Below are positions 11,300 to 11,536 of a DNA stretch of 64,000 bases, one piece after another. The notes below the pieces were generated by a model. It worked only from the letters and a program-made list of their open reading frames with translations. It searched no databases and was not told where the DNA came from. The first letter of the stretch is position 1, and each line of letters starts with the position of its first letter. The position numbers were made by a program, and so were the translations under genes. The stretch is from Acinetobacter phage vB_AbaSI_3. The stretch lies in sequence record PQ382034.1. One strand, 5' to 3'.

Positions 11300-11536
11300 T
11301 TACGAATAAGTTTGTGTTGGTTCATAAAATAAACGTTCTTTCAACATTCTGTCGAGCTTTGCAATTGCGGCAGATCGGTTAAGGTACTGTGAACGTTTAT
11401 TTGCACTTTCGGCAATTAAACCAGTTGGTAAATGAGTAACACGTACTGCATTAAAAGGCCGATTGACCCATCGGCGTGCACCACTTGTTCTATACTCATC
11501 AATTCTCAATTCACTAGGTTTGAATGAGTAATCCAT
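11300..11536 (-). CDS. class-I release factor domain-3 (peptidyl-tRNA hydrolase domain)-like mini-protein lacking the GGQ motif
   Basis: ELRIDEYRTSGARRWVNRPFNAVRVTHLPTGLIAESANKRSQYLNRSAAIAKL lines up with RF1 [53 protein letters not shown] from memory; GGQH is replaced by RRW. Confidence 0.6.
   Translation of the reverse strand: MDYSFKPSELRIDEYRTSGARRWVNRPFNAVRVTHLPTGLIAESANKRSQYLNRSAAIAKLDRMLKERLFYEPTQTYS

Follow-up and report, generated by a model that had tools for sequence, protein, structure and literature searches.

A release factor domain without its catalytic motif in a phage tRNA region

We describe a small gene in a 64,000-nucleotide stretch of DNA (the window, meaning the whole stretch analyzed) from Acinetobacter phage vB_AbaSI_3 (record PQ382034.1), whose product resembles the catalytic domain of bacterial release factors (RFs) but lacks the catalytic GGQ motif. 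The gene, here called mini-RF, is an ATG-initiated open reading frame (ORF) on the minus strand (11300-11536, stop codon included) that encodes a protein of 78 amino acids (aa), MDYSFKPSELRIDEYRTSGARRWVNRPFNAVRVTHLPTGLIAESANKRSQYLNRSAAIAKLDRMLKERLFYEPTQTYS, as given in the window ORF list. That list, profile searches, structural comparison and the ratio of non-synonymous to synonymous polymorphism (pN/pS) mark it as a minimal class-I release factor domain-3 (RF-PH) module without GGQ. Two tRNA clusters on the same strand, predicted with ARAGORN, flank the gene (9146-10340 and 11899-12297). The upstream one includes a tRNA with anticodon CUA, of the amber-suppressor type (12223-12297, minus strand), 687 bp from the mini-RF start codon. 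ARAGORN labels this tRNA "Pyl"; it has a clean cloverleaf and an encoded CCA. An earlier note, made from the sequence alone, had located the gene between two tRNA clusters and about 700 bp from a UAG-reading tRNA, in agreement with these measurements. The same note had used T4 as its frame of reference, which needs correction: the source phage is a T4-like Acinetobacter baumannii phage, but it belongs to the genus Lazarusvirus (Straboviridae, Twarogvirinae), and across 10600-12400 it shares 99% identity with phages PhaR5, vB_AbaM_3014 and Berthold.

Homology and predicted fold

The mini-RF protein matched the Pfam RF-1 profile (PF00472) with an E-value of 6.9e-12 and 45.8 bits, above the gathering cutoff of 35 bits (residues 4-67 against profile positions 6-71 of 116), as well as PHROG 20323, named "RF-1 domain peptide chain release factor" (E 3.3e-20; residues 5-73 against positions 2-72 of 73), and belongs to both families. 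A phmmer search against PDB sequences retrieved Escherichia coli RF2 (E 3e-13) and RF1 (about 3e-11), with approximately 40-46% identity to domain 3 of RF1/RF2 across 65 residues. The NCBIfam models prfA and prfB also hit the domain-3 segment (E about 1e-13), at scores well below their cutoffs (50.3 bits versus 423, and 48.3 versus 370, respectively). The same was true of the NCBIfam model for ArfB (16.8 bits versus 100) and of the PrfH model TIGR03072 (38.2 versus 166.65). In sequence the protein is nearer to RF1/RF2 than to ArfB.

An AlphaFold2 model built from a 121-sequence alignment (predicted local distance difference test, pLDDT, 83) placed strands at residues 10-15, 30-35 and 41-44, and a helix at 50-71. 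Searched against the PDB with Foldseek, it superposed on domain 3 of ribosome-bound RF1 and RF2 (TMq 0.77-0.82, root-mean-square deviation 1.9-2.8 Å). The input alignment consisted mostly of canonical RFs, so the model indicates compatibility with the fold rather than an independent discovery of it. A model from the single sequence was poor (pLDDT 69, strands unformed) and was superseded by the alignment-based one. The homology to release factor domain 3, which the earlier note had seen by eye and proposed to check with PF00472 and an AlphaFold model, was thus borne out by both approaches. The matches and alignments identify mini-RF as a genuine, stand-alone and truncated homologue of class-I release factor domain 3, composed of the three strands and the first ~22 residues of helix α7.

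Membership of a known functional class is another matter. As a functional class-I RF, mini-RF lacks the GGQ tripeptide, domains 1 and 2/4 (with their PxT or SPF motif) and an equivalog score. It also lacks both the GGQ domain and the basic C-terminal tail of the ArfB/YaeJ/ICT1 type, and ends instead in the nine-residue non-basic FYEPTQTYS. Assignment to PrfH fails on the equivalog score and again on GGQ. GenBank and RefSeq nevertheless name the gene "peptide chain release factor 1/2", "release factor" or "putative peptidyl-tRNA hydrolase". The names "release factor" and "peptidyl-tRNA hydrolase" go beyond what the sequence supports, because there is no GGQ, there are no accessory domains and the equivalog scores are below threshold. 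Annotations in dozens of genomes of A. baumannii phages that are therapeutic candidates are probably wrong about the activity of this protein.

Loss of GGQ and conservation of the domain core

In the HMMER alignment to RF2, the position of GGQH is taken by R21, R22 and W23 (codons CGC CGA TGG; 11468-11476, minus strand). In the phmmer alignment to the RF2 chains of the PDB the loop reads RTSGA-RRWVNR, where the one-residue gap reflects a loop one residue shorter; replacement and shortening had both been described in the earlier note. Around the loop the domain is well preserved. The alignments recover VRVTHLPTG (V31-G39; 11420-11446, minus strand), the conserved core strand and turn common to all release factors, and, together with the model, RSQYLN (R48-N53; 11378-11395, minus strand) at the start of helix α7, conserved with the RF motif RSQHKNK. 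The C-terminal tail FYEPTQTYS (F70-S78; 11303-11329, minus strand) is family-specific, with no RF1/RF2 counterpart at that place. Its pattern FYxxTxxYS is conserved in Lazarusvirus, Hadassahvirus and AB1I1M-1, and the model has low confidence there (pLDDT 56). The protein is basic (isoelectric point 10.1, net charge +6), at least as much as RF domain 3.

The same protein is carried by 38 phage records at 98.7-100% identity (tblastn). Divergent orthologues lie in the same genome region in four other Twarogvirinae lineages: vB_AbaM_PhT2 of the genus Hadassahvirus (53% identity to the window protein, SNW at the GGQH position), AB1I1M-1 (48%, with the loop shortened further), ZZ1 (41%, SNW) and Ac42 (34%, GHY). 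Across relatives more generally, the position holds SNW, SAW, GHW or GHY, or a further deletion. The earlier note had asked whether related phages conserve the gene, and whether close relatives have kept an intact GGQ. The gene is conserved in the 38 records and in four other Twarogvirinae lineages, and GGQ was absent in every relative examined. A sequencing artefact or a recent mutation is ruled out by these identical or near-identical records together with the absence of GGQ in all divergent orthologues.

In an alignment of 15 GGQ-less relatives, R32, G39, R48, S49 and L61 are invariant, and R16, T34, H35, E43 and N53 nearly so. All of these positions, save E43 and L61, are also kept in canonical RFs. 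Both the sequence and the length of the former catalytic loop differ among the 15 members, 12 of which have an aromatic residue (W, F or Y) at the position of the His of GGQH. In all members the RF-1 match stops at approximately profile position 72, so that helix α7 is cut at the same place.

A widespread family of GGQ-less modules in phages

An exhaustive phmmer search against 1.84 billion representative proteins returned GGQ-less proteins as the top matches, with fragments of canonical RFs ranking after them. The GGQ-less forms found are stand-alone proteins of 68-86 aa, proteins of 134-170 aa with C-terminal extensions, and proteins of 327-417 aa with N-terminal extensions. We recognized no fused domain in the longer family members. 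Two of these, Pseudomonas phage 73 ORF037 (164 aa) and the protein of Xanthomonas phage NR08 (170 aa), carry SAW in the RF module and continue into an unrelated C-terminal extension; the former also matches PHROG 20323. In the proteins of 164-170 aa at loci L006 (1498-1992, Pseudomonas phage 73 ORF037) and L007 (1486-1998), the segment PRIYWTYYPKSRRGYW that follows the module resembles, by eye only, the RF1 domain-4 strand "RIRTYNFPQ"; if this likeness is real, a larger piece of the ancestral RF may survive in these two proteins. A further profile search identified a tandem duplicate of the GGQ-less module (P0156, 129 aa) on 51 contigs. In loci L061-L063, from JGI metagenomes, its gene (6001-6390 of L061) comes directly after an HD_4 (SpoT-type hydrolase-like) gene. 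The tandem duplicate was also found near NADAR, antitoxin-like and Acb2/Tad1-type genes.

A pattern scan of IMG/VR detected 47 phage loci with small RF-domain proteins, about 20 without GGQ and about 27 with it. Structure matches in BFVD added proteins of Acinetobacter phage 133 and of Aeromonas, Vibrio-type, Mycobacterium and Rhodococcus phages. Taken together, the searches place mini-RF in a phage family of GGQ-less mini-RF modules that is widespread. Databases already list the gene, and we found no paper that describes or tests the GGQ-less phage RF family. Concerning a single or multiple loss of GGQ, a neighbour-joining tree had unsupported deep nodes, and only the Twarogvirinae subgroup was modestly supported (62%).

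The IMG/VR scan also included a separate clade of proteins of ~70 aa that keep GGQ ("GGQHVG", with C-terminal "ITHP" or "LTSP"; loci L027, L032, L034, L039 and L049-L054). Several of these loci lie 0.7-1.7 kb from a tRNA-Met(CAT) gene. The members of this clade are possibly active, as minimal stand-alone GGQ domains with no ArfB-like tail.

Selection, expression and genomic context

Over all pairs of Lazarusvirus sequences, mini-RF has a pN/pS of 0-0.15, similar to that of the neighbour genes; compared with AB-Navy4, it shows 10 synonymous differences and 1 non-synonymous. These values indicate that the gene is under strong purifying selection. Along with the intact ORF of constant length across genera at 34-53% identity, they rule out a pseudogene. 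A decaying, functionless remnant of a captured release factor gene is likewise scarcely credible: mini-RF is truncated and its catalytic motif is gone, but the ORF is intact and of equal length in five phage lineages, substitutions are constrained, and the same truncated form occurs fused to a variety of N- and C-terminal extensions.

A spacer of 13 nucleotides (11537-11549, minus strand) separates the upstream 80-aa ORF from the mini-RF ATG, with a weak Shine-Dalgarno-like GAG approximately 10 nucleotides before the start codon; in the AB-Navy4 record, a ribosome-binding site is annotated at this position. Farther upstream, a consensus scan found a sigma-70-like promoter match (TTTACA-17-TATTAT, with TG before it; 12913-12941, minus strand) ahead of the small ORFs and the tRNA cluster. 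We did not find the T4-type late motif TATAAATA on the minus strand from 11537 to 13798. It is plausible that the small ORFs, the tRNAs and mini-RF form one early transcript from this predicted promoter. A long, A+T-rich hairpin of ~20 bp (12303-12368, minus strand), which overlaps a terminator-like stem-loop, separates the 91-aa ORF from the first tRNA in the cluster.

In Lazarusvirus, Hadassahvirus and the AB1I1M-1 group the gene order is the same (80-aa ORF, tRNAs in some cases, mini-RF, 188-aa ORF); in ZZ1 and Ac42 the neighbours differ. Neither the 80-aa ORF upstream nor the 188-aa ORF downstream had an informative Pfam, PDB or PADLOC match. The latter (10657-11223, minus strand; phrog_1491) is called "tail fiber protein" in RefSeq and PHROG, a name that no Pfam, PDB or PADLOC match accompanies and that is doubtful given its place in a tRNA and accessory region. 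On the same strand, 1.4 kb upstream of mini-RF, lies acb1 (12966-13421, minus strand), encoding the anti-CBASS nuclease Acb1, a homologue of T4 gp57B (PF23474, E 3.6e-48). Older records name Acb1 "RNA ligase" or "2',3'-cyclic phosphodiesterase".

The gene is inside the tRNA gene region in five Twarogvirinae lineages. Lazarusvirus, PhT2, AB1I1M-1 and ZZ1 also encode a tRNA(CUA) in that region; Ac42 has none within 4 kb. The tRNA(CUA) of AB1I1M-1 (1562-1633 of locus L002) is unannotated in GenBank. In IMG/VR, tRNAs lie within 4 kb at 14 of 46 loci, mostly those with GGQ-containing forms; among the GGQ-less loci the count is only 2 of ~19. Metagenomic relatives of mini-RF occur among short accessory genes, including NADAR, an HD_4 hydrolase, an Acb2/Tad1-type protein, Lar and an antitoxin-like gene. 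At one metagenomic locus (L036, IMGVR_UViG_3300044648_000391, 1284-8177), an RNA ligase gene (4239-5384; PHA02142 OB domain and RNA_ligase) begins within the gene of a 92-aa GGQ-less mini-RF (3974-4252), with a T4 Rnl1-like ligase upstream, and three tRNAs and an RtcB ligase downstream. From its gene content this locus looks like an RNA-repair island.

Possible function of mini-RF

Hydrolysis of peptidyl-tRNA in the manner of RF1, RF2 or ArfB is very unlikely for mini-RF, because both glycines and the glutamine have been lost, the loop is shortened, and the residues that replace the motif are not conserved among orthologues. Established enzymology of release factors makes the glycines of GGQ essential for catalysis. 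That the protein is still an active peptidyl-tRNA hydrolase or release factor, acting through other residues, is highly improbable: the database names and the good conservation of the rest of the domain would speak for it, but the protein scores far under the NCBIfam cutoffs of prfA, prfB, prfH and ArfB, and has neither a codon-recognition domain nor a tail.

Retention of polar residues found throughout RFs (R16, R32, T34, H35, G39, R48, S49 and N53), together with the basic charge, suggests that the RNA-facing function of the domain persists. Our preferred reading, to which we give a probability of roughly 0.4, is that mini-RF is a non-catalytic ligand of the 50S A-site and peptidyl transferase centre (PTC) region, by the CCA end of the P-site tRNA, on a subset of ribosomes. 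Probably expressed early, along with the phage tRNAs, it would occupy this pocket with the aromatic W23 of the loop replacing the catalytic tip as a binding element, and would then either hold peptidyl-tRNA or shut out RF1/RF2 or rescue factors. This follows the logic used for inactive RF-like families that have lost the glutamine, in which the catalytic loop is variable, the core is kept and a non-catalytic insertion into the A-site has been predicted (Burroughs and Aravind, PMC6514570). The earlier note had also expected docking in the A-site and PTC without hydrolysis, for example by an antagonist of termination or rescue; its interpretation is partly supported, in that the homology and the loss of the catalytic motif hold, and its mechanism is a hypothesis.

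Several observations weigh against such a ligand. The isolated GGQ domain of E. coli ArfB/YaeJ does not bind ribosomes in sucrose gradients and is wholly in the soluble fraction (PMC3950681), which makes unaided docking of mini-RF doubtful. Without RF domains 2/4 and an ArfB-type basic tail, it has no recruiting domain, and it would probably depend on a partner or on a special ribosome state. When 126 neighbouring ORFs of 15 GGQ-less IMG/VR loci were pooled and scanned against Pfam, no neighbour family recurred, and no conserved partner emerged (the three RNA-ligase matches all came from one locus). Conservation across the wider family is lowest in the very loop that would reach into the PTC, an argument against PTC insertion being what selection maintains. 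Phage translation itself would also suffer from an A-site blocker that did not discriminate.

An alternative, which we regard as rather unlikely on the present analysis, is that mini-RF binds RNA ends off the ribosome, either the 3' ends of tRNAs (CCA, aminoacyl or peptidyl) or transcripts of the tRNA operon, shielding them from host nucleases and 3'-end-modifying toxins or aiding their repair. A precedent exists in PrfB3 of Arabidopsis, a plant RF2 homologue that has lost GGQ and SPF, and that binds and protects the 3' end of petB mRNA (PMC5897788). The basic mini-RF sits within tRNA clusters in Twarogvirinae, RF-1-domain genes belong to the core of one mycobacterial tRNA array type, in which the motif was not analyzed (PMC5966550), the GGQ-less module of L036 lies amid the T4 Rnl1-like ligase, a second RNA ligase, tRNAs and RtcB, and one relative directly follows an HD_4 hydrolase gene. 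Against this, the association with tRNAs is scarce among the GGQ-less IMG/VR loci, the copy in Pseudomonas phage 73 adjoins a primase gene and the 3.2 kb examined there contain no annotated tRNA, and binding of free tRNA by RF domain 3 is not known. Alternatively, mini-RF could be a protein decoy that mimics RF domain 3 and titrates a host protein: either PrmC, the GGQ methyltransferase, whose titration would reduce RF activity and increase read-through, or a defence sensor or toxin directed against RFs. PrmC binds RF domain 3 off the ribosome, and its complex (PDB 2B3T) is among the structure and sequence matches. A decoy would need no ribosome-recruiting element, and it would fit the anti-defence neighbours (Acb1 near mini-RF; NADAR, Acb2/Tad1-type and Lar near relatives) as well as, through weakened termination, the adjoining tRNA(CUA). 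We find it improbable even so: the loop recognized by PrmC is the very part that has been lost and is variable, the hosts are diverse, and PADLOC gave no match.

More improbable still is that mini-RF acts with the phage tRNA(CUA) as a two-part module for read-through or anti-termination, in a phage that uses the standard code. With the inactive RF domain on the PTC side of ribosomes paused at stop codons or with empty A-sites, or with host RF1 disabled by it (for instance via PrmC), the suppressor tRNA or the phage tRNAs would outcompete host termination or rescue. The link between the two genes is weak, since it comes from co-location in four of five lineages that share ancestry. We detected no TAG recoding in the window, with no in-frame TAG usage and TAG as 4 of 71 stop codons.

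Phages are known to carry tRNAs, and those of recoded lineages also full-length release factors; a conserved RF domain without catalysis differs from both. It points to an unexplored contact with the host translation machinery, by blocking, holding or decoying instead of cleaving. The module, of ~65 residues, is present in Acinetobacter T4-like phages, in Pseudomonas and Xanthomonas siphophages and in many metagenomic phages, and its fusion to various extensions makes it look like a reusable functional unit. If the ligand reading is correct and mini-RF binds the PTC, it would be a naturally occurring protein with which to probe or inhibit termination and rescue. Binding to tRNA ends or to an RF-modifying enzyme would instead amount to a new mechanism of counter-defence or takeover, and a read-through module would make mini-RF the first dominant-negative release factor from a virus and the founding member of a widespread class of phage mini-proteins that target ribosomes.

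Comparison with known systems

With domain 3 of RF1 and RF2 (PF00472), mini-RF shares the strand-strand-strand-helix fold and the residues DxxR...VR(I/V)TH(I/L)PTG...RSQxxN(K/R). It differs in lacking GGQ, in its loop shorter by one residue, in a helix α7 that ends after ~22 residues with the switch loop missing, and in the absence of domains 1, 2 and 4, so that it cannot read stop codons. ArfB (YaeJ), ICT1 and C12orf65 are similar in being RF catalytic domains without codon-recognition domains; unlike mini-RF, they have retained GGQ, and their binding to ribosomes depends on a basic C-terminal tail (PMC3950681). The pair formed by PrfH and RtcB2, which act in rescue and repair, also ties an RF paralogue to RNA repair, and at one metagenomic locus the GGQ-less relative has RNA ligases and RtcB as neighbours. 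PrfH, however, keeps GGQ and a remnant of the codon-recognition domain. No RtcB was noted near mini-RF in the window, where an RtcB2 association was not specifically examined.

Phage "code-change modules", composed of a suppressor tRNA and a full-length RF1 or RF2, with or without an aminoacyl-tRNA synthetase, resemble our case in that a phage RF homologue is near a suppressor-type tRNA (bioRxiv 10.1101/2021.08.26.457843). Those are full-length, GGQ-containing RFs in phages with in-frame stops, whereas here the RF is truncated and GGQ-less, and the code is standard.

The closest parallels in the loss of catalysis are Dom34/Pelota, the baeRF-1 families, MRPS35 and PrfB3, in which the catalytic glutamine is lost and the loop is variable, while the RNA-facing residues are kept. 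Catalytically dead RF relatives have non-hydrolytic roles, namely ribosome splitting or blocking, structural roles and protection of RNA 3' ends (PMC6514570, PMC5897788); the RF survey of Burroughs and Aravind (2019) does not mention phage versions (PMC6514570). Dom34 and baeRF-1 have the unrelated archaeo-eukaryotic RF fold, in contrast to the bacterial RF fold of mini-RF. PrfB3 and MRPS35 are large eukaryotic organellar proteins, whereas mini-RF is a bacterial-type module of ~65 residues, in a 78-aa protein, carried by a phage.

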